DNA from: Elusimicrobiota bacterium
GTDB taxonomy: Bacteria > Elusimicrobiota > Elusimicrobia > UBA1565
Reading direction: 5' to 3'
Assembly (NCBI GenBank): GCA_043819795.1
Contig: JBDREN010000049.1
Coordinates: 2,379 to 66,378 of the forward strand
Length of the DNA: 64,000 nt
Shown: one piece after another, positions 721 through 15,985 of the stretch
Layout: every line of letters begins with the position of its first letter
Numbering within the stretch: position 1 is the stretch's first letter
Notes under the pieces: generated by a model
What the model saw: only the letters and a program-made list of their open reading frames with translations
Databases searched by the model: none
Told to the model about the DNA's origin: nothing
Made by a program: the position numbers and the translations under genes

Positions 721-806
721 GGTGTGCGCTTCTCAAAATCCACGAGCTGTCCCGGGAGTTTGCTAGACTATTTTGAAGGCCAGGCCGGGCGGTTCAGGGG
801 GGGGAC

Positions 807-2240
807 ATGAGAGTCGCAGAGAAGACGAAGTCCGCGCAGGAGGTCTGGGCCAAAGGGTACGGCGTCATCAAGCACGCGCCCGAGACCCAGAGGCGCGTGC
901 GCGCCATGGCCAAGCACTTCAAGGCCACGGGAGACGGGACGCCTCTCTTCGAGATTCTGGCGGCGGCCGACCGGCTCGCGAGCGCGGCCATGTGGCTCAC
1001 GGTGCACGACACCTACGCCAGGAACGTGTACTTGGACGGGCGCAAGCTCGGCCGCGAGGACTTCAAGAAGAGCCCCGAGGGGCACACCGGAGGCTCCCTC
1101 AACATCTGCCCGGCCTACGCGGGCTATCTCGCCGCGAACGCGATCACCGGCCATACCCGGGGCTGGCTCATGGAGCAGGGGCACACGGTCTCGGCGATCG
1201 ACTCCGTGAACCTGCTCGTCGGCAACCTGACGCCGGCCCATGCGGAGCGTTACGACCTGACCAACGAGGGCCTGAGCCGTTTCGTGCGGGACTTCTACTC
1301 CTACCGGCTCAACGACAAGGGCGAGCAGGATTCCCCGCGGGGCAGCCACGTGAACGCCCACACGGCGGGGGGCATCGCCGAAGGCGGGTATCTCGGCTTC
1401 GCCGGCCTGCAGTACGCGCACCTGCCCCTGGCGGGCGAGAGGCTGGTGGCGTTCCTGAGCGACGGCGCCTTCGAGGAGCAGCGCGGCCCGGACTGGGCCC
1501 CGCGATGGTGGCGGCACGCGGACTGCGGCTTGGTCGCGCCCATCATGATCTGCAACGGCAGGCGCATCGACCAGCGCACCACCATGAGCATGTCCGGCGG
1601 CTCGGCCTGGTTCCGCAGGCATCTGGAGCTCAACAACTTCGATCCCATCGTGATCGACGGAAGGGACCCGGCGGCCTTCGCCTGGGCGATCTGGGAGACG
1701 GAGAGAAGGCTCGAGTCCGCTCCCCGGAAATATCCCGTGAGGCTTCCCTACGCGATCGCGGAGACCGTCAAGGGATACGGCTTCCCCGGGCAGGGGACGA
1801 ACGCGGCCCACGGCCTGCCTATAGGCGGCAAGGCGGACGACGAGATGATCCGCGTATTCAATGACGGCGCCGGGAAGCTGCACGTGCCCGCGCAAGAGCT
1901 CAAGGAGGCGGCGGCGAGGTTCCAGCGGCACAAGGACCGGCCCAAGGAGCGGGACCACGCCATGGCGGCGCGGGACGTGAAACTCAAGAGGACGGTCGAG
2001 CCCCCCTGGCTGCGAGTGGACGAGAAGCACATTCCCATGACGATGATCGACTACATGTTCGTCGAGACCTGCCTGGCGAACAAGCACCTCCGGCCCCGCG
2101 TGGGCAACCCGGACGAGCTCCGCTCCAACCGGATGGAGCGCACCTTGGATATCCTCAAGCACCGGGTGACGCTTCCGGAGCGGGGAATGGCGGAGGCGCT
2201 CGACGGGAAGCTGTCTCCGCACGAGGTGATCCTCCGATGA
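807..2240 (+). CDS. Phosphoketolase (XFP) family protein, N-terminal and central portion only (477 aa; possible truncated gene or pseudogene)
   Basis: Clear similarity to xylulose-5-P/fructose-6-P phosphoketolase TPP-binding regions (GHTGGSLNI.., HTAGGIAEGGYLGFAGLQYAHL, FLSDGAFEEQRGPDWAPRWW, APIMICNGRRIDQRTTMS, RVGNPDELRSNRMERT). The ORF is ~477 aa versus ~790-820 aa for characterised XFPs. It stops just after the central domain, 4 nt after the next gene's start. Confidence 0.7.
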   Translation: MRVAEKTKSAQEVWAKGYGVIKHAPETQRRVRAMAKHFKATGDGTPLFEILAAADRLASAAMWLTVHDTYARNVYLDGRKLGREDFKKSPEGHTGGSLNICPAYAGYLAANAITGHTRGWLMEQGHTVSAIDSVNLLVGNLTPAHAERYDLTNEGLSRFVRDFYSYRLNDKGEQDSPRGSHVNAHTAGGIAEGGYLGFAGLQYAHLPLAGERLVAFLSDGAFEEQRGPDWAPRWWRHADCGLVAPIMICNGRRIDQRTTMSMSGGSAWFRRHLELNNFDPIVIDGRDPAAFAWAIWETERRLESAPRKYPVRLPYAIAETVKGYGFPGQGTNAAHGLPIGGKADDEMIRVFNDGAGKLHVPAQELKEAAARFQRHKDRPKERDHAMAARDVKLKRTVEPPWLRVDEKHIPMTMIDYMFVETCLANKHLRPRVGNPDELRSNRMERTLDILKHRVTLPERGMAEALDGKLSPHEVILR

Positions 2241-2815
2241 GCGGCCCGGCATCCGTCGCGAGAAGACTGCTCTTTGTGGGGCTGTTGGCCGCGGTCCTGG
2301 GGCCGCTCGCCGGCTCCGCCCGCGCCGCGGTCTCCCGGGGCATGCACGTGGGCGGCTTCGCCAACGGGGCGAACTGGGGCGTGGGACGCCTCGGCCGCAT
2401 AACGGACACGGGGATCAACTTCGCGCTGCTCTACAGGTATCACATCACCGGAGCGCTCTCCGCGGGAATGGAGGTGCGCCGCATCGACTACGGGGCCACC
2501 GCGGCCTCGGGCACCGAGTCCGACGTGGAGCTGGATTCCTACGCTCTGATCGGCAGGTGGGATGTCCTGCCCAAGTCCGATCTCCGGCCGCATCTGGTCT
2601 GCGGCGTGTCCAGCAACAGGTTCAAGCGGAAGGTCGTCCTCGGCCGCTCCACCTCCGAGTCGTCCTCGTATAAGCCCGGCGGAAGCGTCGCGATCGGCCT
2701 GGACAGGGACTTCGGGAAGGGCTGGACCGTGGGCGGGCAGTTCCGCTACCTGCACGTGGGCTCGGACATCAACGCCCTCGGGCTCCGCCTGGTGATCTCC
2801 TTCAGGTTCGCGTAG
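2237..2815 (+). CDS. Outer-membrane beta-barrel protein (OmpA-like/porin-family beta-barrel)
   Basis: N-terminal signal peptide (LLFVGLLAAVLGPLAGSARA), alternating amphipathic beta-strand pattern, and the C-terminal aromatic signature RLVISFRFA (terminal F-x-F) typical of BAM substrates. Confidence 0.65.
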   Translation: MSGPASVARRLLFVGLLAAVLGPLAGSARAAVSRGMHVGGFANGANWGVGRLGRITDTGINFALLYRYHITGALSAGMEVRRIDYGATAASGTESDVELDSYALIGRWDVLPKSDLRPHLVCGVSSNRFKRKVVLGRSTSESSSYKPGGSVAIGLDRDFGKGWTVGGQFRYLHVGSDINALGLRLVISFRFA

Positions 2816-2877: not shown

Positions 2878-3351
2878 CTAATCCTGGCCGTGGAGGGAAG
2901 ACGACTTGTCGTCGTGCACGCCGCGGCGTAGCGTCTGAAAGAGCCGCTCGAAGTGATGGACGCTGACAAGGACCGTGACCGAAACAAGCGCCATCGCCAG
3001 GGCCAGGCCGAATTCCCGGAACCCGATGGCGCAGCCGATGGCGGCCAGGAGCCACACCACCGCCGCCGAGGTGATCCCCGTGACGAGACCTTGCCTGTGC
3101 ATCATGAGTCCGGCGCCCAGGAACCCGACGCCGGTGGCCACCTGGCCCAGCACCCGTGTCGGGTCCCCCTGACCCATATGGCGCATGCCTATGTCAATGT
3201 AGGTGAGGGTGCCGAGGCAGATGAGGATGCTGGTCCGGATGCCGATCGGCTTGCCGCGCAGCTGCCTCTCGATGCCGATGATCACGCCGCAGGCTATGGC
3301 GGCCAGGATCTGAAGCCAGAAGATGCGATCCGCGAGAACATGTGCGCCCAT
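2878..3351 (-). CDS. mgtC: MgtC/SapB family membrane protein
   Basis: MgtC signature IIGIERQLRGKPIGIRT and 4-5 TM helices. I set the start to the internal ATG at 3351 (MGAHVLADRIFWLQ...); the longer track ORF running to 3573 adds an arginine-rich non-homologous leader. Confidence 0.75.
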   Translation of the reverse strand: MGAHVLADRIFWLQILAAIACGVIIGIERQLRGKPIGIRTSILICLGTLTYIDIGMRHMGQGDPTRVLGQVATGVGFLGAGLMMHRQGLVTGITSAAVVWLLAAIGCAIGFREFGLALAMALVSVTVLVSVHHFERLFQTLRRGVHDDKSSSLHGQD

Positions 3352-3555
3352 CCCGGGAGTATAACTTACCCATGAACGGCCTGCAAATCGCCGAATCGCC
3401 CCACGCTCCCTTCCTCTCCCCTCACGGAGAGAATTTCGTGCACATCCGCGGCGTTTCGCCGGGCGCGCGCATCTCAGTCCGGGCCAGCTCTCCATCCCGG
3501 CAGCGTAAAAACGGGACGCCGGTGGGGAGAATATGGTTAAATTGATGCCGCTCTC

Positions 3556-5052
3556 ATGCCCGCCGATCCTCAAACGTGGGAATCCCGGAGCCCGTTGCGG
3601 AACTTTCTATTGGAAAGCGTCACGGGGCAGGTCCTGATTTCCCTGACAAGCGGGACCTTCGTGACCGCCTTCGCCGTCAAGCTCGGAGCGTCCAACGCGC
3701 AGGTCGGGATCCTGGCATCCATCGCCGCCCTGTCCCAGCTCGTGCAAATCCCCTCGATCTATCTGATCAACCGCTTGCGGGATCGCAAGATCATCGCCAT
3801 GGCCGGCTTCCTTCTCTCCAAGCTTTCCTGGCTGTTGATCGTCCTGCCCATCTTGTGGGGGGCCCGGTCCGTCCCCATGGGGCGTCTGACCGTCGCCGTG
3901 GCCTTGAGCTCCACCTTCGCGGCGGCGGCGCTCTGCAGCTGGAATTCCTGGCTTCGCGACGTGATCGGGCGCAGCCGCATGGGCGCGTTCTTCGCCAAGC
4001 GGCTGGCCTACAGCAAGGCCGTGGGCATCATCACCGGCCTGTCGGCCGGATTCTTCGTGACGGCTTGGGGGAGCTACTCCCGGGAGACGGTGCTCGCCAG
4101 CTATGCCATCCTCTTCTTGGGCGGCATCCTGTTCGGACTGATGAGCGTGTATTTCGTCTGGACCTCCCCCGAGCCGCCTCAAATCCCGATCGACGTCGGA
4201 TTCCTTTCCTCGATCCTGGAGCCGTTCCGCGACAGGAATTACCGGATGCTCATCATCTTCCTCGCGATGTGGAGCTTTTCGGTCAACCTGGCCGCCCCGT
4301 TCTTCACTGTGTACATGCTCAGGCGGCTGCACTTCACCGTGGCCTTCGTGATGTCCATGTCCGTCTTGAGCAACGTCATGAACCTCATATTCTTCCGGTT
4401 CTGGGGCGCTTTCGCCGACCAGTTCTCCAACAAAGGCGTCCTCGCCGTTTGCGCGCCGCTTTGCATCGTCAGCACCTTGTCTTGGGCTTTCACGACCTTG
4501 CCCGAGCCGCACTTCCTGACCTTGCCGATGGTGATCGCGATACATATAGTGGTGGGCGCGGCCACCGCCGGTGTCATACTGGCGTCGAGCAATATCGGCA
4601 TGAAATTGTCCCCGAAGGGGAAGTCGGCGTCGTTTCTGGCCGCGAGCTCCATCGTAAGCTCCTTGGCGGCCGGCATCGCCCCGGTCATCGGAGGGATGTC
4701 GGCGGACTACTTCGCCAGCCGGGAGCTGTCCCTCCTGCTGACATGGAAGAGTCCGGCGTTGGACCTCGGCTTGCGGGCGATCAGCTTCAGGCACTGGGAC
4801 TTCTTCTTCGCCATCGCGTTCGCGCTCGGACTCTATGCATTGCGGCGCTTGTCCTTGGTCCGGGAGGAGGGGGAGGTGCAGCAGAGGGTCGCCCTCCGGG
4901 AATTCCTCCGGCGCCTGCGCGCGAGAATGCTGGCGTTGACCACGGTCCGCGGGATGCGGCAGTTCATCCTCATGCCCGTGGAATTCCTCCGGGACTTCAC
5001 CGAGGAGGACGATATCCTGCCGCACGCGGAGTCCCGGGAAATCCCACGATGA
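3556..5052 (+). CDS. MFS (major facilitator superfamily) transporter
   Basis: 498 aa with ~12 hydrophobic helices and an MFS-like loop between TM2 and TM3 (LINRLRDRKII). Substrate cannot be inferred. Confidence 0.7.
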   Translation: MPADPQTWESRSPLRNFLLESVTGQVLISLTSGTFVTAFAVKLGASNAQVGILASIAALSQLVQIPSIYLINRLRDRKIIAMAGFLLSKLSWLLIVLPILWGARSVPMGRLTVAVALSSTFAAAALCSWNSWLRDVIGRSRMGAFFAKRLAYSKAVGIITGLSAGFFVTAWGSYSRETVLASYAILFLGGILFGLMSVYFVWTSPEPPQIPIDVGFLSSILEPFRDRNYRMLIIFLAMWSFSVNLAAPFFTVYMLRRLHFTVAFVMSMSVLSNVMNLIFFRFWGAFADQFSNKGVLAVCAPLCIVSTLSWAFTTLPEPHFLTLPMVIAIHIVVGAATAGVILASSNIGMKLSPKGKSASFLAASSIVSSLAAGIAPVIGGMSADYFASRELSLLLTWKSPALDLGLRAISFRHWDFFFAIAFALGLYALRRLSLVREEGEVQQRVALREFLRRLRARMLALTTVRGMRQFILMPVEFLRDFTEEDDILPHAESREIPR

Positions 5053-5071
5053 ACGAAGAGGCGGTATCCTT

Positions 5072-7951
5072 ATGAAGCACACTGCTTGGCTGTCGATCGG
5101 CGCGATGATCCTGTTCGCGGGAGCCGGGTCCGCGGCCCCGTTTCGCCCCCTCGAGCCCAAGGAGGCCGCCGCGCTGATATCGAAGATCCAGGCCAATCCG
5201 CGCGGGCCGTACGAGCGCGTGATGTGGCACTGCCGGGACGGCTCGGTGCTGCCTCCCGCGCCCTATGCCTGCTCCGAGCGCGGCGGCGGCCGGCAATACG
5301 GCGTCCCGAACGCGGACGCGGGGAAGCTGGCTGCGGCCGGGATATACGTCGGCACGGTCTTGGCGTCATTGTCGCCCGAGGATCTGACCGCCGACGGCTA
5401 TTACCGCGCGCGGGCCATTATCGTGGAGAAATTCCTCGAGATCGCGCTGGACGGGTGGGCCTTGCGTTCGGCGAAGTCGTATCGGGGCTTCAGGCAGGCC
5501 GAAGACGAGGAGAAAGCGGCCGAAACCCTTCTGGCGGTATTGGCCCGCGAGGACGGCTGGGCCCTGCGCCATCGCTACCTCGCCGTCCGGCTCGCGCGGT
5601 CCATGCCGGGCGGAGCGGACGCGAGCCTGGCCGATGAGATCCGCGCCCTCGCCGCCAAGATAGCGGACAAGGACCCCGCGTTCCAGGGCATGCGCTCCAA
5701 GATCCACTCCATCATGGAGCCCGGAGACGCCAGCGCGGTGCTGAGCTATTCGGAAACGGCGCCGGCGGCCGCGCCGGCGGCGAGGGAGCTGGCGGAGAAA
5801 ATCCGGGCCTATTACGACCCGCGCCAGTTGCGCGACCGCCTCCGGAGGATCAGACGCTTCTTGCCGGACCGGGGGATCGCAGGCCTGATCGACGAGTTGG
5901 TTTCCGCGGAAGCCGATGTCTTCGAGCGGATACGGATCGTCGAGGAATTGCTGACCCTGGCGGACCGAGCGCTCGGCCAGGCCGCGTCCCGCACCGACGG
6001 GACCCGGCTCCACCTGATCCAACTCATGAGCGCCTTGGAGGATGTCCTGGCCTCGACGACCGCGCAGCTAAGAGGCGCGAGCATGTTCAGGCTTCAGGCG
6101 GTGGAGACCGCGCAGAGGCTGTCGCGGTGCGCCCGGGCGCTCGGGCTTCTCTCGCCGCGCGAGCTGGAGGCCGCCCGGCCGGTCATAGGGCGCATGCGGA
6201 CCGGAGGGGGAGCGGATTACGTCGCCGGGCATCGCCAGCTGATTCGGACCGCCGAATGGGCTCGTGCCCTGGTGCTGTCGGAGCTGGGCATCCCCATCGG
6301 CCGGTACGTCCTGGCCGAAGGCCGGGCGGCGCAGGTCGTGGACGAGCTGCTTCGCAGCGGGGTGATGCTGCCGCTGGCGGCGATCATCGACCGCATCGGC
6401 GCCGACCTGTACTCCCTGCGGGGAGGGAACCATCGCGTCTACGGCGTGAAGGGGGCCGCCGTGCGGGGCGAGAACCCGGGCCTGGCGATCGGGCCGCTTC
6501 GCGTCCGAGAGCATTCCCAATCGCCCAAAGGACTCAAGCGCAACGAGGTGGCGCTCCTATATGAGCTCCCTTCGGAGCTGCCTCCGGTCGCGGGGATCAT
6601 CACCGTGGGCGCGTCCGGCAGCCTATCGCATGTCGCCCTGCTGGTGCGGAATCTGGGGATTCCCTTGGTTTCCGTGGACGGGCGGACCGCCGACGCGATC
6701 AAGGCCTGGGAAGGGCGGGAGGTGGCCGTGGGCGTGAGCGCGGGCGGCCGCGTGGTCTTGGGAGAGCTTATCGCGTTCGGGGAGGAAGACCGGCGGCTGT
6801 TGGGGCGATCGTCGGCCAAGGACCAGCCTTTCCTGAGGATCCCGCGCGAGTCGCTCAACCTCCGCTTCGCGGAGGCCCTCGCGCTGGGCGAGGTGTCGGA
6901 AAAGGATTCCGGGGCGAGGGTCGGGCCCAAGGCCGCGGAGCTGGCCAGGCTCAAGCGTCTGTTCCCGGATCGCGTGAGCGACGCGGCGGTGCTGCCCTTC
7001 GGGCTGTTCGTCGAGCATGTCGACCGGCCGGGGCCGGACGGGGCTCCGTCCCCCCTGGCGAGGCTGCGGTGGGCCTATGCCCAGGCGGCCACAAAAGGCG
7101 CCGAGGAGCGGGAGCGGTTCATGCTGGAAGAGCTCGCCAGGTTCCGCAAGCGGATACTGGAGCTCCCCTTTGCGGATGGGTTCGAGCGGAAGATCGACGA
7201 GGCGCTCGCGCGCGTCGGCCGGCCGGGCGCATTCGGGGTCTTCGTCCGCAGCGACACCAACGTGGAGGACCTCAAGGAGTTCACCGGCGCCGGCCTGAAC
7301 CTGACGGTACCCAACGTCGTAGCGCGCGATTCGGTCTTCTCCGCGATCCGTTCGGTCTGGGCGTCCCCCTATTCCGAACGCTCCTACGCCTGGCGGCAGC
7401 GCATACTCCTCGATCCGGAGCATGTCTATCCGTCGGTCATTCTCCACAAGACCGTTCCCTCCGAAATATCGGGGGTCCTGGTCACGATGGACATGGAGAC
7501 GGGGGATCCGGGCCAGGTCACGGTGAGCGCGAGCGAGGGCGTGGCCGCGGTGGTGGACAGCGGCCTTCCGGAGACGATCGTCGTGCCCAGACAGGGAGGC
7601 GCCCCTCGGTGGCTCTCCTCGTCCCGGACCGCGACCAGGAAGGCGGTCCCCCCGTTGCCGAAAGAGGGGCTCGAGGTGCTCCCCGCCTCCGGCGGCGAGC
7701 CTCTGCTGGGACCGGCAAGGATCAAGGACATCCTCCATGTCGTTTCGCGTCTGGAGACGATCGAACGGGCCGACCCGGCCGTCCCCTGGGATGTGGAGTT
7801 CGGGTTCCTGGGGGATCGGATGTTCCTCATGCAGCTGCGGCCGCTCAAGGTGTCCCGCTCGGCCGTCCGCCAGCCCTATCTGCGGAAGCTCGATCGGGAG
7901 GTCTCGTCGAGGATCGGCGAGGTCGACATGAGCCGGCCGTTGGCAAGGTGA
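5072..7951 (+). CDS. PEP-utilizing-enzyme family protein with signal peptide and permuted domain order (N-terminal unknown domain, then phosphohistidine swivel domain, then PPDK_N ATP-binding domain)
   Basis: Signal-like N-terminus MKHTAWLSIGAMILFAGAGSAAP. The mid-region matches the PEP-utilizers mobile domain (AGIITVGASGSLSHVALLVRNLGIPLVSVDG). The C-terminal ~330 aa match the PPDK_N / PEP-synthase nucleotide-binding domain (VGPKAAELARLK.., VFVRSDTNVEDL..GAGLNLTVPN...AIRSVWASPYSERSYAWRQ...SGVLVTMDMETGD..VTVSASEGVAAVVDSG). Confidence 0.7.
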   Translation: MKHTAWLSIGAMILFAGAGSAAPFRPLEPKEAAALISKIQANPRGPYERVMWHCRDGSVLPPAPYACSERGGGRQYGVPNADAGKLAAAGIYVGTVLASLSPEDLTADGYYRARAIIVEKFLEIALDGWALRSAKSYRGFRQAEDEEKAAETLLAVLAREDGWALRHRYLAVRLARSMPGGADASLADEIRALAAKIADKDPAFQGMRSKIHSIMEPGDASAVLSYSETAPAAAPAARELAEKIRAYYDPRQLRDRLRRIRRFLPDRGIAGLIDELVSAEADVFERIRIVEELLTLADRALGQAASRTDGTRLHLIQLMSALEDVLASTTAQLRGASMFRLQAVETAQRLSRCARALGLLSPRELEAARPVIGRMRTGGGADYVAGHRQLIRTAEWARALVLSELGIPIGRYVLAEGRAAQVVDELLRSGVMLPLAAIIDRIGADLYSLRGGNHRVYGVKGAAVRGENPGLAIGPLRVREHSQSPKGLKRNEVALLYELPSELPPVAGIITVGASGSLSHVALLVRNLGIPLVSVDGRTADAIKAWEGREVAVGVSAGGRVVLGELIAFGEEDRRLLGRSSAKDQPFLRIPRESLNLRFAEALALGEVSEKDSGARVGPKAAELARLKRLFPDRVSDAAVLPFGLFVEHVDRPGPDGAPSPLARLRWAYAQAATKGAEERERFMLEELARFRKRILELPFADGFERKIDEALARVGRPGAFGVFVRSDTNVEDLKEFTGAGLNLTVPNVVARDSVFSAIRSVWASPYSERSYAWRQRILLDPEHVYPSVILHKTVPSEISGVLVTMDMETGDPGQVTVSASEGVAAVVDSGLPETIVVPRQGGAPRWLSSSRTATRKAVPPLPKEGLEVLPASGGEPLLGPARIKDILHVVSRLETIERADPAVPWDVEFGFLGDRMFLMQLRPLKVSRSAVRQPYLRKLDREVSSRIGEVDMSRPLAR

Positions 7952-7958
7952 ACGGGCG

Positions 7959-9269
7959 ATGAGAGCAAGGGCGCCGAGACTTTTGACGCGGCTGGGGCTG
8001 GCTCTGGGCATGGCCTGCCTACGGCAGGGCGCGGCGGCGTACCCGACGGATTCCGGGGAGCGGACCGGCATCCGCCGGTTGTCCTGGCAGGCGCAGGTCG
8101 ACCGGGGCGAGACGCGGGGAGTCAAGAACCCGCCTGGAGGGCGCTGGGGGGAGGATCGGATACGCCTGCGGCTGCTGAGCTCGGGCGCGCGATTCCGGCT
8201 GTCCGAGGACAGCCCCAAGGACCCGGTCCTTCAGAAGGGCCTGACGGACATACTCAAACGCGGGGGTTGGGAGTCGTACGGGGCGGCGATCGTGGACATC
8301 TCCGACCCGGAAGCCCCGAGATACGCGGCCGTCAACGAGCTCAAGCGCCAGATACCGGGCAGCACGGCCAAGGTGCTGGCGGCCGCGGGCATGCTGGAGG
8401 CGCTGCGGTCCCTTTATCCCGACGACATAGCCGCCCGGGAGAGGGCTTTGCGGACGATTCGGGTTCCGGCGGACTCCTGGGCCATGCCCAACTCTCATGA
8501 TGTCCCGATCCTGACGGCCGAGGGGATGTCGATGCGCCCCATCCGCCCCGGCGACGTCTTCTCACTGTGGGAGTGGCTGGACCACGCACTCTCCCCGAGC
8601 TCCAACGCCGCGGGGACCATGGTGTGGCGCGAGGCGGCGCTGCTGCGCTTGTTGGGGCGGGAATATCCCCCGGCGGCTTGGGACGGAAAGCTCTTCGCAC
8701 GGTGGAGCAGGCAGGATTTCACCAAGGCCGCGTTCGATGCGGTCGACGCTCCGCAGGCCGGGGCCGGGCTCGATACGGACCTGTTGCGGATACGTACATT
8801 CTTCACGGCGGGCGCTTCCCGCCACATCCTTTCGTCGAGCAGCGTCGGGACTCCCTTGGGCCTGGCGCAATGGCTGCTCAGCATGGAGCAGGGCAGGATC
8901 GTGGACCCTTGGTCCAGCCTCGAGCTCAAGCGCCTCCTCTACGTCACGCGCAGGCGCATCCGGTCCGCCGCGGCCCCGGAGCTGGCGGAATGCGCCGTAT
9001 ACTTCAAGAGCGGAAGTCTCTACAAGTGCAGACCCGAGGAGGGCTTCGTCTGCAAGAAGTATATGGGCAACGATCAGAACCTGCTCAACTCGCTGGCCTT
9101 GGTCGAAGTCCCGTCCGCGGAGCCCGATGAGGGCGGTCGACACCGCATTTCAGGGGCGTATATCGTGGCCGTGACGTCGAACGTGCTCAAGCGGAACTCG
9201 GCCGACGATCACGCGCGCCTCGCGGGCGCCATCCATCGCTTGCTGACGGGCCGGCAAAAAAAGAAATGA
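7959..9269 (+). CDS. Class A beta-lactamase-like serine hydrolase (Beta-lactamase2 family), secreted
   Basis: Signal peptide. S-x-x-K (PGSTAKVL), S-x-N (SPSSNAAG) and K-S-G (YFKSGSL) motifs are in class-A order and spacing. Confidence 0.65.
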   Translation: MRARAPRLLTRLGLALGMACLRQGAAAYPTDSGERTGIRRLSWQAQVDRGETRGVKNPPGGRWGEDRIRLRLLSSGARFRLSEDSPKDPVLQKGLTDILKRGGWESYGAAIVDISDPEAPRYAAVNELKRQIPGSTAKVLAAAGMLEALRSLYPDDIAARERALRTIRVPADSWAMPNSHDVPILTAEGMSMRPIRPGDVFSLWEWLDHALSPSSNAAGTMVWREAALLRLLGREYPPAAWDGKLFARWSRQDFTKAAFDAVDAPQAGAGLDTDLLRIRTFFTAGASRHILSSSSVGTPLGLAQWLLSMEQGRIVDPWSSLELKRLLYVTRRRIRSAAAPELAECAVYFKSGSLYKCRPEEGFVCKKYMGNDQNLLNSLALVEVPSAEPDEGGRHRISGAYIVAVTSNVLKRNSADDHARLAGAIHRLLTGRQKKK

Positions 9270-10267
9270 CCAAAAATGGCGCCGTGCTCGCCGTGTCCGC
9301 CTTTCTGCTGAGCGTCTTCCCGCATGCCTCGCCGGCGGGAGAGGAAGCCCCGCCGCCCGTCGAGCTGGACTCCAACGGCAATCCCATCGGAGAGGCGGCC
9401 CTCAACTGCAGGGCGAACTATCCTCTTTTGCGCAAGAACGCGGACCTCATGGCCGCGCTCGCGGCGGCGCTGGAGAAGGCCGGATACAGCGAGGCGATAC
9501 GGAAAAGGAAGATGGCGGTTTCCATCGTCGATCTGACGGCCAAGAACCGCGTCTATTACGCGGGCATCAACGGCAACCACATGATGTACGCCGCCAGCCT
9601 CCCGAAGATAGCCGCGCTTCTGGCGTACGTCGAGGCGGTCAAGGACGGCCGGCTGCCCTGGAATGACGATGTCCGGAGGCGGCTCTCGCGCATGATCAAC
9701 GCATCGAGCAACAAGGACGCCACGTGGGCCATCGAGCAGGTGGGCCTCGATTACATCGAAAAGGTCCTGCGCAAGCAGGGCCGGTGTTTCTACGGCGACC
9801 GGTATGGAGGGCAATGGCTGGGCAAGCCGTACCGGAAGGAAAGCAAGGCGAAGAGGGACCCTTTGCGGGGATTGTCTCACGGCGCCACGACCCGCCAGAC
9901 CGCGAGATGGTTCGTTCTGCTGGACAAGGGTTTGCTCGCGGATCCGGTGGGGAGCAGGCGGATGATGGGGGTGATGAGTCCCCCGCAAAAGCGCCACAAA
10001 TTCGTCAAAGGGCTGAAGCCTCTCGGGGACGTCCGTATTCTGGCCAGAAAAAGCGGGACTTGGCGGACCTACCACTCCGACAGCATCCTGGTGGAGCATG
10101 AGAGCGGCGTCCGCTATGTGGCCGTCGGGATGCTGGACCACCCAAGGGGCGGGAGAATCCTCGTCGATCTGATAAGGATCGTCGACCGGCTGATGGTGGG
10201 AGGGAAACACCGCGTTCCTCGGGCGGAGCCCGGCGGGGGCGCCGGATCGCCCGAGATCCCGCGGTGA
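9266..10267 (+). CDS. Class A beta-lactamase-like serine hydrolase (paralog of the preceding gene), secreted
   Basis: Signal peptide. SLPK (S-x-x-K), ASSNKD (S-x-N), an RKE omega-loop-like triad and ARKSGTW (K-S-G). The start overlaps the upstream stop (ATGA). Confidence 0.65.
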   Translation: MTKNGAVLAVSAFLLSVFPHASPAGEEAPPPVELDSNGNPIGEAALNCRANYPLLRKNADLMAALAAALEKAGYSEAIRKRKMAVSIVDLTAKNRVYYAGINGNHMMYAASLPKIAALLAYVEAVKDGRLPWNDDVRRRLSRMINASSNKDATWAIEQVGLDYIEKVLRKQGRCFYGDRYGGQWLGKPYRKESKAKRDPLRGLSHGATTRQTARWFVLLDKGLLADPVGSRRMMGVMSPPQKRHKFVKGLKPLGDVRILARKSGTWRTYHSDSILVEHESGVRYVAVGMLDHPRGGRILVDLIRIVDRLMVGGKHRVPRAEPGGGAGSPEIPR

Positions 10268-10334
10268 GGGTCCGTCCCCGTCCGGACCGGTAGCTTTTCA
10301 GCTCGACCGGCGACGATCCTTCATCGGAGCTCGG

Positions 10335-10622
10335 TCAGTCGGTCCATTCCCGCGACCGAAGGGCCCGGACCTCGTCCTCGAGCTCGGACACCCGGTCTCT
10401 GAGGGTCAGCATCAAGTGGGCTATCCCGACGTCGACGCCGAGGGCGCGGCAGACGCGCTCTATGCGCCGCAGGCGCGGGAGGGCCCGCCGGTCCAGCTCG
10501 ACCCCCTCATCGGTCTCGCGGACCTCGATGACGGACTCTTCGATGGACCGCTGCAGGAAATCCGGCTCGATGAGCAGCGTCTCCGAAAGTCTGAGGATCT
10601 GCGACCGCCTAACCCGCCGCAT
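10335..10622 (-). CDS. cbpM: Chaperone modulator CbpM-like (MerR-like small protein)
   Basis: 95 aa, similar to E. coli CbpM. It sits immediately downstream of, and overlaps, a DnaJ-family gene, which is the classic cbpA-cbpM arrangement. Confidence 0.6.
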   Translation of the reverse strand: MRRVRRSQILRLSETLLIEPDFLQRSIEESVIEVRETDEGVELDRRALPRLRRIERVCRALGVDVGIAHLMLTLRDRVSELEDEVRALRSREWTD

Positions 10623-11595
10623 TCTGGTGCTCCTTCTTCAGCTCCCCCATCAGAGCCTCCGCCTTGTGCGACAGCTCGGACGGGATGTCGACCTCGATGC
10701 GGGCGTAGAGGTCACCGCGGCCCCGCCGCCCGCCGCCGAGTCCCTTGCCCGGGATGCGAAGCCGCGTACCGGCTCTGGTCCCTTTGGGAACGCGGATGCG
10801 CACCCGGCCGAGAGGAGTGGGGACCAGGACCTCCGCTCCGAGCGCGGCGTCCCACGGCATCACCCGGACGGCGGTCTCGATGTCGGAGCCGCTCACCTTG
10901 AACCTCGGATCGGGCTTGAGCCGGACGGTCAAATAAAGATCGCCCGGAGGCTGGCCGTCCCCCGACTTGTTGCCCTGGCCTTTGAGCCTGATCCTGCTGC
11001 CGTCGCGCAGGTCGGAAGGAAGGCGCGAGCGTATCTCCCGAGCGCTTCGCGTCTCTCCCGCGCCCCCGCAGGCCGGGCAGAACGCCTTCCCGGCGTGCCC
11101 CGCGCCCAGGCATTTCGGGCACACTCCCGTGACGGACATTGAAAAAGAGCGCTCTCCTCCCCGGACAGCCTCTTCCAGGGAAAGCTCGATGACCGCCTCG
11201 ATGTCCAGCGAGGCGGGCGGCGCGCTCCATCGCCCCCCAGCGTGGCCGCCGCCGAAGAAGCTTCGGAAGAAGTCGCTGAATATCTCGTCTCCCGAAGCGC
11301 CCGTCTCGAACCTGAAGGAGTCCCGGGCTCTCTCCTGGGCCGGCGGCGGGCGGAAGGCCTGCCCGTCCTTCCAGTGCTCGCCGAGCTGATCGTACTTCGC
11401 CCGGTTCTCGGCGCTGCCCAGGACCTCGTACGCCTCGTTGATCACCTGGAACGCCTTGGTGTGCTCGGCCTTGTCCTTGTCGGGATGAAGGTCGGGATGA
11501 TGCTCCCGGGCAAGACGCCGGTAAGCCTGCTTGATCTCGTCGGAGCTCGCGCCGCGCGGCACGCCCAGGATCTTGTAGTAGTCCTTGTATTTCAC
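10609..11595 (-). CDS. DnaJ-class co-chaperone, CbpA-like (J domain, partial Cys-rich region, DnaJ C-terminal domain)
   Basis: J-domain DYYKILGV...HPD. Only two CxxCxGxG repeats (CPKCLGAGH, CPACGGAGE). I set the start to GTG at 11593-11595 (VKYKDYYKILGV) with an AGG upstream; the track ORF extends to 11799 through a non-homologous leader. Confidence 0.75.
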   Translation of the reverse strand: MKYKDYYKILGVPRGASSDEIKQAYRRLAREHHPDLHPDKDKAEHTKAFQVINEAYEVLGSAENRAKYDQLGEHWKDGQAFRPPPAQERARDSFRFETGASGDEIFSDFFRSFFGGGHAGGRWSAPPASLDIEAVIELSLEEAVRGGERSFSMSVTGVCPKCLGAGHAGKAFCPACGGAGETRSAREIRSRLPSDLRDGSRIRLKGQGNKSGDGQPPGDLYLTVRLKPDPRFKVSGSDIETAVRVMPWDAALGAEVLVPTPLGRVRIRVPKGTRAGTRLRIPGKGLGGGRRGRGDLYARIEVDIPSELSHKAEALMGELKKEHQNAAG

Positions 11596-11743
11596 CAGTA
11601 CCTGCGATGGTATCAAAACCTGCACGACTCCGCCACCAGAAGGACATGCTCCTGGGCGCGGCTCTCCAAGCGAAATGCTAGAGTATCCGCGTCCCCGCGG
11701 ATACCCGCGTCGGATCGGATCGAAAAGTCTTAAGGAGGCGGCG

Positions 11744-12586
11744 ATGGAAATAACCTTCTGGGGATGTCGCGGATCGATCGCGTCTCCGGGGCAGGACACT
11801 CTTCGCTATGGGGGCAACAGCACCTGCCTGGAGATCCGTCCCCGCGAGGGCGGGGTCATCATCCTGGATGCGGGTTCCGGGATGCGTCATCTCGGCAAGA
11901 AGTTGGCGAAGGACGCGGGGATCAACGAGCTCTATCTGTTGCTGACGCACTCGCATTGGGACCATCTGTCGGGCTTCCCGTTCTTCGCGCCCGCCTACAT
12001 GGAGCGGTTCAAGATCAACGTCTATGGGGGGCCCAAGGCTCGGGAATCCCTTAAGCGCTATCTATCGCACCAGATGAGCGCGCCGTACTTCCCCATCGAA
12101 TTCCGCCACTTGAAGGCGACGTTCAACTTCGGCGACGAGTGCCCCCGCATGGAGGAAATAGGCCTCGTGGAGTTCAGCGCGATCCCTCTCAACCATCCCA
12201 ACGGCGGTTATGGATTCAAGCTTTCGAAGCTCGGCAAGAGCCTCGTCTTTCTCACGGACAACGAGCTCGATGGCCGGCATCCCGGCGGGCTCGGATGGAA
12301 GGACTACCTGGACTTCTGCCGCGGGACCGATTTGCTGATCCACGACGCCCAATACACGGACCAGGAGTACGAGAAGACCAGGGGGTGGGGCCACTCCTCA
12401 TATTCCAGCGCCACGCGCTTCGCCATCGAGTCCGGGGCGAGGAGATTCTGCATTTTCCATCACGATCCCGACAGGACCGACGACGACCTTGACCGCCAGG
12501 TGGAATACTGCGCTCGCCTAATACGGGAGGCAGGCGCATCCGTAGAGTGTTTCGCCGCCAGGGAGGGGATGTCGATCCGTCTCTAG
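11744..12586 (+). CDS. MBL-fold metallo-hydrolase
   Basis: THSHWDH (HxHxDH) motif. Start set at ATG 11744 (MEITFWGCRGS), which is preceded by TAAGGAGG; the track ORF from 11585 lacks an RBS. Confidence 0.75.
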   Translation: MEITFWGCRGSIASPGQDTLRYGGNSTCLEIRPREGGVIILDAGSGMRHLGKKLAKDAGINELYLLLTHSHWDHLSGFPFFAPAYMERFKINVYGGPKARESLKRYLSHQMSAPYFPIEFRHLKATFNFGDECPRMEEIGLVEFSAIPLNHPNGGYGFKLSKLGKSLVFLTDNELDGRHPGGLGWKDYLDFCRGTDLLIHDAQYTDQEYEKTRGWGHSSYSSATRFAIESGARRFCIFHHDPDRTDDDLDRQVEYCARLIREAGASVECFAAREGMSIRL

Positions 12587-13441: not shown

Positions 13442-15985
13442 ATGACTTTCCGGCGCGTCGGGCGATTGCTTCTCGTCGCTCTCGGCCTTGCCATGCTCTT
13501 GACCGCGGGAGGCATCGCCCTCCGCCTTCGCGATATGGCCGCCGAGCTCCGCCCCCGGCTGGAGAAAGCCGCATCCAAGCATCTGCGCAGGGAATTGACC
13601 ATCGGGGCCCTGGAGTGGCGCGCGTTTCCAGGGCCCGCCTTGATCGGCAGGAACGTCCTGCTGTTCGAGAAGGACGGCTCCCTTCTGGCGTCGAGCCCCG
13701 AGGTCGTCCTGGAGGCGGCCGTTGGGGAACTGTTGGGCGGGATGGTCGAGATCGAACAGATGACGATCTCTCGGCTGCAGACGCATCTGCTCCGCCGTTC
13801 GGACGGTCTCTGTCCGGTGGCCGAGATGGTGGGGGAGATCGCGCAGGGAGATGCGCCTTCCGGGGCCGACTCCGCGCTCTTCGGGGTCGGGTTCGGGATC
13901 CGCCGGATCGAGCTCACAACGGCGGACATACGCGCTTGGAAGGAAGACGCGCCGCTCGCGCGCACCAGGCTTCTGGCCGACGGCTTCGTCGTGCTCGGCG
14001 GATCGATGCCGTTCCGGCTGGCCGGTCGTTTGGAGCGGGCCGAATCGGGCGGCGACTTGGAGCTGGCGGGGACGTTCGTCCCCGGCCTGGCCGTCCACGC
14101 GAGATCGGAGGGGATGCCGCTGGACGCGCTCCGTGAGATCGCTCCCTCCATCGAGGGATGGACGGGAATGGCCGCGGGCGAGGCCGGCTTGCGGGACGAC
14201 GGCGCGGGGCTTCGCTGGGATGCGGCCGGCACCGTCAAGGGCCTTCGTCCGCCGGGGGAGGCCTCCCTCCCGGAGCTGACCGGCTCCTACGCGCTGTCGT
14301 CCCGTTCGACGTCCACGCTCGTGCTGGCCGCTTCGCATCCTGCGATCCGCGGATCGGCGCGGATGACGTGGGGGGACCCGGCTCGTCCGGGAGTGCGTGT
14401 GGATGTCGACGCGGACCACGTCGACGTCGGGGCGATCCGGGAGATGCTGCTTCGGCCGGCGGGCGAGGCCGGCGTCCCGAGCGACGCGTCGTTCAGGCCC
14501 CCTCCATGGAGACTGTCCGCGCGGATCGGCGGTCTCAGATGGGGCGAGGAGGTCTTGAGACATGCCGTCTTCGAGGGGGCGGGCGCTTCCGACGGCTCGC
14601 TGAAGGCGGGGCCGATCAGCGCCGAGGGATTCGGAGGGCGGTTGCGGGCGGAGATATCGGTCCAGCCGTCCTCCGGACCGGCCGCGGGCTGGAGCGCGCG
14701 CCATGCGCGGCTGGAATGGAGAGCGCGGGACATGCGGCTCGAGCGGGTCCTCCGCGCGCGCGGGTGGCCGCTGAGGGCTTCAGGCACGGTCTCCGGAAGG
14801 GGACGATGGGAGGGGCCGCTGGGGGGACTGCCCGATCTCCATGGCTCGGGACGGGCCGAGCTGATTCTGCGAGAGATCTTTTCCGCGGATATAAGCAGCA
14901 CCACCCCCTTGCTGCCTGAGGTGCGGGGCAAGATCGCGTGGGAGCCGCGGGAGCCCTGGAGCATCGAGCTGAATGCGGGCGACGACTGGTCGGTCCGGGC
15001 CCATGCGCACCCGCCCCCCCTGCGTCGTCTCTCGGCCGAGATCGAGGGGAAGACGCTGGACTTCGAACGCCTCTCCGGATGGACCGCGCTTGTGCGCGAG
15101 GCCGAGGCGCCGGACCCCGGCCGCCCCGCCGATGACGGGTGGGCCATAGACGCTCAGGTGAAGTTCCAGCAGGCCCGATTTCGCGAGGTCCAGCTCGAGG
15201 AGCTGGCCTTGGTGCTGGAGAAGAGGCCGGAGGGACCTGTCCGCATCTCGGGCTTGCGCGCCCGGGGTATGGGAGGCGTTCTGGAGGCCGATCTGGAGCT
15301 ATCCCTCCCCGCGCGGGGAGACCCGCCTGGGCCCGCGTTCTACGGCATCCGATGGAGCACCGATGGAATGGACGTGGAGAGACTCCTGCGCTCTTTCGGC
15401 GCGAAATACATGATATCGGGCGTCGGACGGACCAGCGGCCGCCTGAGAGGGCCCTTGGATCGGCTGAAATGGGGGCATGCAACGGGGACTATCGACATCG
15501 AGGTCGGGGATGGGAACGTCTGGCAGGCTCCCGCCCTCGTCAAAGCCCTATCGACGCTGAGCGTCACATCGGCCTTGCGCAGAATAGGACGAAAGGCCGA
15601 TGTCGGCTTCCCTTTCCGCACTGGGCGGGCTCAGATCGAGCTGGGCGGCGGCAAAGCGGTCATCCGCGCTCCTGCGCACCTTGAGAACCCCAGCCTCAAG
15701 ATCGCCTTCATCGGAACCTACGACCTGGCTGAAGAGACGATAGACGGACGCTTTGTGATCTATTTCCTCACGGTCGTGGACGAGGTCCTGCGCGTAGTCC
15801 CCGGCGTACGCAGACTGCTGTTCAACAAGCGCATGGGGCTGGTGCCCATCTGGGTCGAGGTGAAGGGTCCCCGCCAGGACCCGAAAGTCACGATCCTCCC
15901 GGCAAGGTCGATCTCCGATGCTCTCTGGCAGCCGGTGAGCAGCGTCTTCCACCTCCCGCTGGACCTCATCAAGAAAGCCGAATAG
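13442..15985 (+). CDS. AsmA family outer-membrane biogenesis protein
   Basis: N-terminal TM anchor, 847 aa, long repetitive beta-rich body and a C-terminal AsmA-like region. Confidence 0.65.
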   Translation: MTFRRVGRLLLVALGLAMLLTAGGIALRLRDMAAELRPRLEKAASKHLRRELTIGALEWRAFPGPALIGRNVLLFEKDGSLLASSPEVVLEAAVGELLGGMVEIEQMTISRLQTHLLRRSDGLCPVAEMVGEIAQGDAPSGADSALFGVGFGIRRIELTTADIRAWKEDAPLARTRLLADGFVVLGGSMPFRLAGRLERAESGGDLELAGTFVPGLAVHARSEGMPLDALREIAPSIEGWTGMAAGEAGLRDDGAGLRWDAAGTVKGLRPPGEASLPELTGSYALSSRSTSTLVLAASHPAIRGSARMTWGDPARPGVRVDVDADHVDVGAIREMLLRPAGEAGVPSDASFRPPPWRLSARIGGLRWGEEVLRHAVFEGAGASDGSLKAGPISAEGFGGRLRAEISVQPSSGPAAGWSARHARLEWRARDMRLERVLRARGWPLRASGTVSGRGRWEGPLGGLPDLHGSGRAELILREIFSADISSTTPLLPEVRGKIAWEPREPWSIELNAGDDWSVRAHAHPPPLRRLSAEIEGKTLDFERLSGWTALVREAEAPDPGRPADDGWAIDAQVKFQQARFREVQLEELALVLEKRPEGPVRISGLRARGMGGVLEADLELSLPARGDPPGPAFYGIRWSTDGMDVERLLRSFGAKYMISGVGRTSGRLRGPLDRLKWGHATGTIDIEVGDGNVWQAPALVKALSTLSVTSALRRIGRKADVGFPFRTGRAQIELGGGKAVIRAPAHLENPSLKIAFIGTYDLAEETIDGRFVIYFLTVVDEVLRVVPGVRRLLFNKRMGLVPIWVEVKGPRQDPKVTILPARSISDALWQPVSSVFHLPLDLIKKAE

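Follow-up and report, generated by a model that had tools for sequence, protein, structure and literature searches.

A predicted exported dikinase with the domain order of glucan, water dikinase and a conserved set of neighbouring genes in an Elusimicrobiota contig

The window analysed here is a stretch of 64,000 nucleotides from an Elusimicrobiota bacterium (assembly GCA_043819795.1, contig JBDREN010000049.1, positions 2,379 to 66,378 of the forward strand), and its subject is a gene at 5072..7951 that encodes a homologue of the phosphoenolpyruvate (PEP)-utilizing enzymes, referred to below as the dikinase. A protein of identical sequence is encoded in an Elusimicrobiota metagenome-assembled genome (MAG), and members of its family are named in the databases 'PEP/pyruvate-binding domain-containing protein' or, in some cases, 'phosphoenolpyruvate synthase'. 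The gene and its domains, which were compared with PEP synthase (PPS), pyruvate, phosphate dikinase (PPDK), rifampin phosphotransferase (RPH) and glucan, water dikinase (GWD), are as follows.

5072..7951, + strand: dikinase gene, 959 aa, with leader, helical N-terminal domain (N-domain), His swivel and ATP-grasp (Pfam, NCBIfam, family alignment, profile match, AlphaFold2)
5072..5140, + strand: signal-peptide-like leader, residues 1-23 (MKHTAWLSIGAMILFAGAGSAAP) (hydrophobic leader test across the family)
5141..6436, + strand: N-domain, residues 24-455 (a beta hairpin and ~20 helices in the AlphaFold2 model)
6437..6781, + strand: phospho-histidine swivel domain, residues 456-570 (matches to PF00391, the PPS swivel and the GWD His-domain profile)
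6872..7906, + strand: ATP-grasp (PPDK_N) nucleotide-binding domain, residues 601-945 (Pfam, NCBIfam, alignment, Foldseek, GWD profile match)

Searched as a single sequence, the dikinase matched the Pfam PPDK_N model (PF01326) over residues 685-934 (E 5.8e-25, 88.7 bits against a cut-off of 27), and residues ~6-315 of the NCBIfam PPS and RPH models mapped onto dikinase residues 605-930. The scores of these NCBIfam models were 50-84 bits against cut-offs of 600-1000; for the RPH model NF041857 (71.5 bits, cut-off 999) the ATP-grasp domain was the only part covered. The swivel model PF00391 matched residues 503-534 of the window dikinase alone at E 0.0011 and 19 bits, under its cut-off of 23.1, and was matched by all 24 members of the family alignment (best E 2e-6), which comprises the window dikinase and 23 full-length homologues of ~950-1030 aa with 33-80% identity. 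Compared with PEP synthase 8a8e, the family profile gave two matching stretches, dikinase 680-944 to PPS 102-376 (1.6e-29) and dikinase 467-547 to PPS 384-467 (4.5e-5), whose order in the dikinase is reversed relative to PPS. A first-pass annotation of this gene had placed a swivel domain ahead of a complete PPDK_N domain at the C-terminal end, and had named Pfam alignment and structure prediction as the checks; both bore out this order, with the swivel domain at about residues 456-570 instead of the ~500-590 given at that time.

The putative phospho-accepting residue is His520, located in the SLSHVA motif (codon CAT, 6629-6631), which is invariant in the 24-sequence alignment (G-S-L-S-H-V) and pairs with the catalytic TSH histidine of PPS when the family profile is aligned to 8a8e. 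In the ATP-grasp domain the same alignment showed invariant GPK620, VRSDTNVEDL (725-734, including R726), D907-x-E909 and Q921-x-R923. The AlphaFold2 model obtained from this alignment (pLDDT 85, pTM 0.82) consists of the leader, a short hairpin, ~20 helices that reach to residue 450, a His domain rich in beta structure (464-565), and then the ATP-grasp domain, which Foldseek matched to the isolated ATP-binding domain of RPH (5hv6) at E 1.8e-12 and a TM-score of 0.84, normalised to target length. With 959 residues, the protein stops 14 residues past the ATP-grasp domain, and no Pfam match to the PEP-utilizers_C TIM barrel was found in it at E up to 1, as the first-pass annotation had observed. 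The missing barrel refutes the notion that this is an ordinary PEP synthase or PPDK of central metabolism, for which only the database names speak, and the low NCBIfam scores, the swapped domain order and the leader also count against it; its probability is close to nil.

Residues 24-455 gave no Pfam match at E up to 10, and no CBM45 or CBM20 starch-binding modules were detected by Pfam in residues 1-455 at the same limit. The earlier description of ~450 N-terminal residues without recognisable motifs holds for this domain, having overlooked the leader in residues 1-23. Within the family the N-domain contains a hairpin in which Cys54 and Cys67 are both invariant, and the conserved motifs NPRGPY, WxCxDG, RGFRQxEDE, LRxKIH and VDDxLRSG, the last of them with an invariant Arg (R428). 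It is presumed to be the acceptor-binding domain.

The same succession of domains has been described for potato GWD1, in which CBM45_1 and CBM45_2 are followed by an all-helical central domain at 483-926 with 20 helices, the His domain at 931-1050 that holds H992, and, at the C-terminus, the ATP-binding domain at 1069-1387, a primary arrangement said to differ dramatically from those of PPDK and RPH (JBC 2026, PMC13553574). The dikinase family was compared by hhalign profile-profile alignment with a GWD set of database sequences from plants (GWDs) and bacteria (GWD-like proteins), each containing PF22973 and PF01326, of which 18 were aligned. The two profiles were colinear across 565 columns (Prob 99.0%, E 2.2e-18). 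Domain by domain, the His domains aligned at E 5.4e-7 and the ATP domains at E 1.3e-14, while the N-domain plus His domain against the GWD central plus His domain gave E 4.5e-7 as a single contiguous stretch that begins in the last helix of the N-domain and takes in the His domain; the cross-domain controls gave E 0.28 (N against ATP) and E 0.52 (His against central). The N-domain against the available tail of the GWD central domain reached E 0.016 over 22 columns only, which is not significant alone. These 22 columns pair the V-D-(D/E)-x-L-R-S-G helix of the family, with R428, and the GWD helix E900/E901/R904, proposed to assist phosphate transfer in GWD1 (PMC13553574). The spacing from this Arg to the His is also similar, with 92 residues between R428 and His520 in the dikinase and 88 between R904 and H992 in GWD1.

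These alignments indicate that the domain order is the acceptor, His, ATP order of plant GWD and not a one-off permutation. The first-pass annotation had regarded the protein as circularly permuted or independently assembled, which is correct insofar as the His domain precedes the ATP-grasp domain relative to PPS, PPDK and RPH; the idea of a peculiar, newly assembled enzyme has to be given up, given the identical order in potato GWD1, the colinear GWD alignment, and the presence of the family in at least 590 species genomes (see below).

Alternatively, in line with the permutation idea of the first-pass annotation, the domains of a PPS/RPH-type ancestor could have been rearranged independently of GWD, with a resemblance to GWD that is convergent in order only. 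Against single sequences, the ATP-grasp domain was closer to an RPH-like protein (4.8e-16, 289 columns) than to a plant GWD (4.3e-8, 180 columns), and the His domain matched the RPH swivel at 6.6e-4 and a single GWD at 0.51. PF22973, the GWD-type phospho-His model, was matched by 8 of the 24 members with a best E of 0.016, all under threshold, and the ATP-grasp domain has retained VRSxxxxEDL, a motif of the PPS/RPH type that GWD1 does not have at that site. Set against this are the colinearity of the 18-GWD profile alignment from the last N-domain helix into the ATP domain, and the agreement of domain sizes and Arg-to-His spacing with GWD1, and we consider an independent rearrangement unlikely. 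It concerns the evolutionary history only and leaves the proposed mechanism unchanged. Because the single-sequence comparison places the ATP-grasp domain closer to RPH-like proteins and PF22973 remains sub-threshold, we describe the dikinase as GWD-like in architecture and mechanism, as judged from sequence, and do not file it as a GWD.

True GWD homologues also exist in bacteria, as indicated by the PF22973+PF01326 proteins found in Planctomycetes, Gemmataceae, Nitrospirales and Limisphaerales MAGs (P0361, P0365, P0380, P0388, P0393 and P0409), which are 44-49% identical to the plant GWD C-terminus and distinct from the family of the window dikinase. A side observation concerns the alpha-glucan water dikinase isoform X2 of Rhododendron vialii (P0296), where the consensus LSHV is LSYVSV at about residue 270, with Tyr replacing the phospho-accepting His.

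The family is large and widely distributed. A profile of the His and ATP half retrieved hundreds of proteins with 95-100% of the profile covered, and the N-domain profile retrieved 676 representatives at 50% identity, 290 of them at 1e-30 or better. Complete members have 940-1040 aa, and their N-domain always begins 15-60 residues in; proteins of 800-896 aa with the same N-domain were found to be truncated gene calls. When one genome per species was scanned, at least 590 loci or species genomes carried the family, including Gamma-, Beta-, Delta- and Zetaproteobacteria, Acidobacteriota, Gemmatimonadota, Myxococcota, Spirochaetes, Bacteroidota, Bdellovibrionota and Elusimicrobiota, with the cultured species Parahaliea maris and Agaribacterium haliotis among the carriers. 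Nearly all the matches were in diderm phyla; one partial match was in a 'Clostridia' MAG. No description of this family or of its gene module, presented below, was found in the searchable literature.

The dikinase gene is flanked by a transporter gene and by two genes for predicted exported serine enzymes of the penicillin-binding protein (PBP)/class A beta-lactamase type, here named BL436 and BL333.

3556..5052, + strand: MFS_1 transporter gene, 498 aa (Pfam MFS_1, 62 bits)
7959..9269, + strand: BL436, predicted exported protein of 436 aa with a class A beta-lactamase/PBP fold (STAK, SSN and KSG motifs; synteny)
9266..10267, + strand: BL333, predicted exported PBP-A-like serine enzyme of 333 aa (SLPK, SSN and KSG motifs; Beta-lactamase2, 50 bits)
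10269..10288, + strand: terminator-like hairpin directly past the BL333 stop (consensus scan only, weak)

The gaps between these genes are 19 nt (MFS_1 to dikinase), 7 nt (dikinase to BL436) and -4 nt (BL436 to BL333, an overlap); the MFS_1 gene is likely the first of the operon, and the hairpin is possibly its end. Synteny was assessed in 86 related loci. A BL436 homologue was found directly 3' of the dikinase gene in 80 of the 86, and a BL333 homologue within the flanks in 62, where it was often convergent and immediately adjacent. The SxxK, SxN and KSG motifs were conserved in at least 96% of the BL436 and 98-100% of the BL333 homologues, corresponding to S135/K138, S214/N216 and K350-S-G in BL436, and S111/K114, S147/N149 and K262-S-G in BL333. 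Relatives of BL436 gave faint to weak Beta-lactamase2 matches, BL436 itself had a marginal PDB match to OXY-1, and the sole solved relative retrieved by the BL333 profile was the PBP-A Tll2115 (9.4e-6). BL436, BL333 and the MFS protein matched no specific NCBIfam family, PADLOC returned no defence-system match, and clustering of the flanking open reading frames (ORFs) detected no conserved component besides the dikinase, BL436, BL333 and the transporter. The conserved partner genes and the export leader, both missed by the first-pass annotation, are the truly unusual features of the dikinase.

Two apparent gene structures were rejected. A single ORF cluster containing both dikinase and BL436 came from read-through ORFs, as in locus L011 from a Spirochaetales MAG, where one stop-free frame of 2530 codons (3694-11283, + strand) runs across an upstream gene, the dikinase and the BL436 homologue; this frame may be a real fusion or a mere lack of stop codons. 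In the window, a 499-aa ORF with a GTG start (3576-5075, + strand), which seems to run into the start of the dikinase gene, is only the MFS_1 gene read in the wrong frame. A complete module, with the dikinase, both PBP-like genes and a TLC-like transporter gene, was also found on a contig (L024, CAXQPB010000182.1) of a MAG labelled Nitrosopumilus sp.; its place in an archaeal bin is probably a binning error and less likely a sign of horizontal transfer.

The strict genomic coupling with BL436, with overlapping or adjacent start and stop codons, and the nucleophilic Ser motifs retained in both partners would fit a protein acceptor, in which case the dikinase would phosphorylate a PBP-like partner, for instance on its active-site serine, as a regulatory switch. 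A conserved domain of 430 aa with many invariant charged residues, resembling the substrate-binding domains of GWD and RPH, argues otherwise, and we know of no precedent for a protein acceptor in this enzyme superfamily; we regard this alternative as very improbable.

A hydrophobic N-terminal leader was detected by a heuristic hydrophobicity test in 105 of 116 complete family members. Many of these leaders are textbook signal peptides with n, h and c regions and Ala-x-Ala-like ends, also in lower-GC genomes, which makes a chance open frame unlikely; that of the window dikinase ends in SAA-P. BL436 and BL333 of the window both have leaders as well, and Cys pairs, invariant Cys54/Cys67 in the dikinase and conserved Cys357/Cys365 in BL436, were also counted in favour of export, as was the occurrence of the family almost entirely in diderm phyla. 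From these features the dikinase is predicted to be exported. To our knowledge, no characterised relative of the dikinase carries a Sec-type leader.

The leader would have another meaning if the dikinase phosphorylated small molecules in the cytoplasm, as an antibiotic or xenobiotic kinase of the RPH kind or as a phenolic phosphate synthetase, and were encoded in a resistance island; the hydrophobic stretch would then be a start-codon artefact or a membrane tether. RPH and PPS are the best matches of the ATP-grasp domain by structure and sequence, its gene lies among those for beta-lactamase-fold proteins and an MFS transporter, and at least 90% of the members share a Met at alignment position 39 that could be an internal start. 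This position was rejected as the true start of the window protein, which has Ile there and in which a Shine-Dalgarno-like GAAGAGG precedes the ATG at 5072; moreover, the region ahead of position 39 contains conserved residues and a helix modelled with confidence, and textbook leaders occur in the lower-GC members too. A mobile resistance island would not be expected to show the three-gene synteny seen here across at least 590 species of many phyla, and neither the domain order nor the RIF-binding domain of RPH was found. Taken together, a cytoplasmic phosphotransferase appears quite unlikely.

The fourth conserved element is a transporter. A gene of the TLC/nucleotide transporter (NTT) family was detected by tblastn in the flanks of 46 of the 86 loci, and in 34 of these it lies no more than 500 nt from a gene of the module. 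These TLC-like genes belong to three divergent subtypes, and all nine proteins tested passed the Pfam TLC (PF03219) cut-off. In 5 further loci, for a total of ~51 of 86, proteins with membrane-HEAT(-cNMP_binding) architecture of the NTT-HEAT(-cNBD) type adjoin the module. The membrane-HEAT-cNMP_binding (~1010-1090 aa) and NTT-HEAT proteins are encoded 43-512 nt from the module or between module genes, indicating that this fusion family is tied to the dikinase module. The HEAT/cNMP_binding or NTT-HEAT genes are located as follows.

L002, 13565-16804, - strand
L008, 12125-15163, - strand
L064, 3611-6688, - strand
L074, 1893-5153, + strand
L005, 10019-12874, - strand
L081 and L036: further loci with such a gene

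In the window the dikinase gene is adjoined by the MFS_1 gene, whose product showed no similarity to the TLC profile. MFS_1 homologues with 39% identity flank the module in three other loci (L004, L007 and L066), making four with the window, and one locus has both transporter types. NTTs, including NTT-HEAT(-cNBD) fusions, are widespread in free-living bacteria, and their function there was left open (Major et al. 2017, PMC5381601).

Considering these data, our preferred interpretation, held with moderate confidence and drawn from sequence and from analogy with characterised enzymes, is that the window encodes a GWD-type dikinase that is exported, acts in the cell envelope and draws its ATP from an adjacent transporter. 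By analogy with GWD, RPH and PPS, ATP would bind to the C-terminal ATP-grasp domain, and its beta-phosphate would be transferred to His520 on the mobile His domain, with release of AMP and Pi. The His domain would then pivot onto the N-domain, as in the pivoting-His mechanism published for GWD1 (PMC13553574), and the phosphate would pass to a hydroxyl of the bound acceptor, the charged residues of the N-domain (R428, RGFRQxEDE, LRxKIH) serving to bind the acceptor and catalyse the transfer. The dikinase would be co-transcribed with the two exported PBP/class A beta-lactamase-fold serine enzymes, and because of the leader and these exported partners the reaction is placed in the periplasm or envelope, on or beside the substrate of BL436 and BL333. 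The acceptor would most likely be a cell-wall or envelope component, and ATP could be supplied by the neighbouring transporter, of the NTT/TLC type in most relatives and MFS_1 in the window.

Several points weigh against this interpretation. The periplasm is not where ATP-dependent enzymes are expected, and the leader could instead be an uncleaved membrane anchor. The module-linked TLC-like proteins are far from the characterised ATP/ADP exchangers (46 bits against the 387-bit cut-off of TIGR00769), tblastn found no NTT/TLC gene in the 64-kb window, where MFS_1 takes that place beside the dikinase, and ~35 of the 86 loci, many of them from Acidobacteriota, are without an adjacent transporter despite ample flank. 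The GWD-type part of the interpretation has against it the closer match of the single-sequence ATP-grasp domain to RPH and the N-domain match limited to 22 columns, both given above.

A more specific version, which we put forward as tentative and consider rather doubtful, is a dedicated extracytoplasmic system in which the NTT or MFS transporter would move ATP out, the dikinase would phosphorylate an envelope polymer (peptidoglycan or another glycan), and the PBP-like enzymes would remodel or degrade the product. GWD would offer a parallel, given that starch phosphorylation opens starch to hydrolases. If this version held, NTT and NTT-HEAT-cNBD transporters of free-living bacteria would gain a function for the first time, and ATP would have a defined route into the periplasm.

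Since the domain order itself is that of GWD and not new, the interest of the locus rests on the predicted export and on the conserved module of dikinase, two PBP-like enzymes and nucleotide transporter, a combination that suggests ATP-driven phosphorylation outside the cytoplasm. If export and linkage are true, the family would be a case of a His-swivel dikinase active outside the cytoplasm, where ATP-dependent chemistry is unexpected, and a conserved envelope module of three to four genes would exist in at least 590 bacterial species. NTT-type transporters of free-living bacteria, of unknown function according to PMC5381601, would then have a concrete role, and the linkage would bear on how ATP enters the Gram-negative periplasm, a route that has been flagged as unresolved (review PMC7432876). 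The two PBP/beta-lactamase-fold proteins may also bear on cell-wall biology or on interactions with beta-lactams.

Other genes of the window surround the operon. Envelope- or membrane-related genes were found at 52-720, 2237-2815, 2878-3573 (- strand), 11585-12586 and 13442-15985, and include an MscS-type channel fragment, an outer-membrane beta-barrel, MgtC, a metallo-beta-lactamase-fold protein and an AsmA-like protein; in other genomes no gene of this group was kept beside the module. A 477-aa ORF at 807-2240 (+ strand), overlapped by another at 768-2252 (- strand), weakly matched the phosphoketolase N-terminal model XFP_N (41 bits) and, under the cut-off, XFP (20.7 bits), and is much shorter than a phosphoketolase.

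Among known systems, the partner enzymes resemble PBP-A (Tll2115) and class A beta-lactamases in the SxxK, SxN and KSG motifs kept in both BL436 and BL333. The similarity is very distant, however, and BL436 is ~170 residues longer and has no significant solved relative. The transporters resemble the NTT/TLC family (PMC5381601) in that the module-adjacent genes of those ~51 loci match Pfam TLC or the membrane-HEAT-cNMP_binding architecture.

The dikinase shares homologous ATP-grasp and swivel domains, with an aligned catalytic His, with PEP synthase and PPDK, which differ in having a TIM barrel and the opposite order of the two common domains, whereas the window dikinase adds the 430-aa N-domain and the leader. 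RPH and BsPPS/YvkC are similar in having three modules (ATP-grasp, substrate-binding and His swivel) without a TIM barrel and in phosphorylating a hydroxyl of a non-metabolic acceptor, and RPH provides the closest solved ATP-grasp domain. In RPH, however, the order is ATP-grasp, substrate-binding and His domain, in contrast to substrate-binding, His and ATP-grasp in the window dikinase; RPH is also cytoplasmic, and its substrate domain is not related to the N-domain, for which the comparison with an RPH-like protein gave E 0.034 over 33 columns.

Compared with GWD1 (EC 2.7.9.4) and phosphoglucan, water dikinase (PWD) of plants and algae, the window dikinase lacks the CBM45 or CBM20 modules, carries a Sec-type leader in place of the plastid transit peptide, and belongs to a family whose N-domain can be likened in sequence to the GWD central domain over one helix at most (E 0.016). 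The gene neighbours of the family are PBP-like enzymes and an NTT transporter, and the PBP-like context lends no support to a glucan substrate. The likenesses lie in a helical domain of ~430-445 aa, a His domain of ~110-120 aa and a C-terminal ATP-binding domain of ~320-345 aa (PMC13553574), and in an acidic-acidic-x-x-Arg helix ~90 residues before the catalytic His; by analogy, the dikinase chemistry is presumably common to both.

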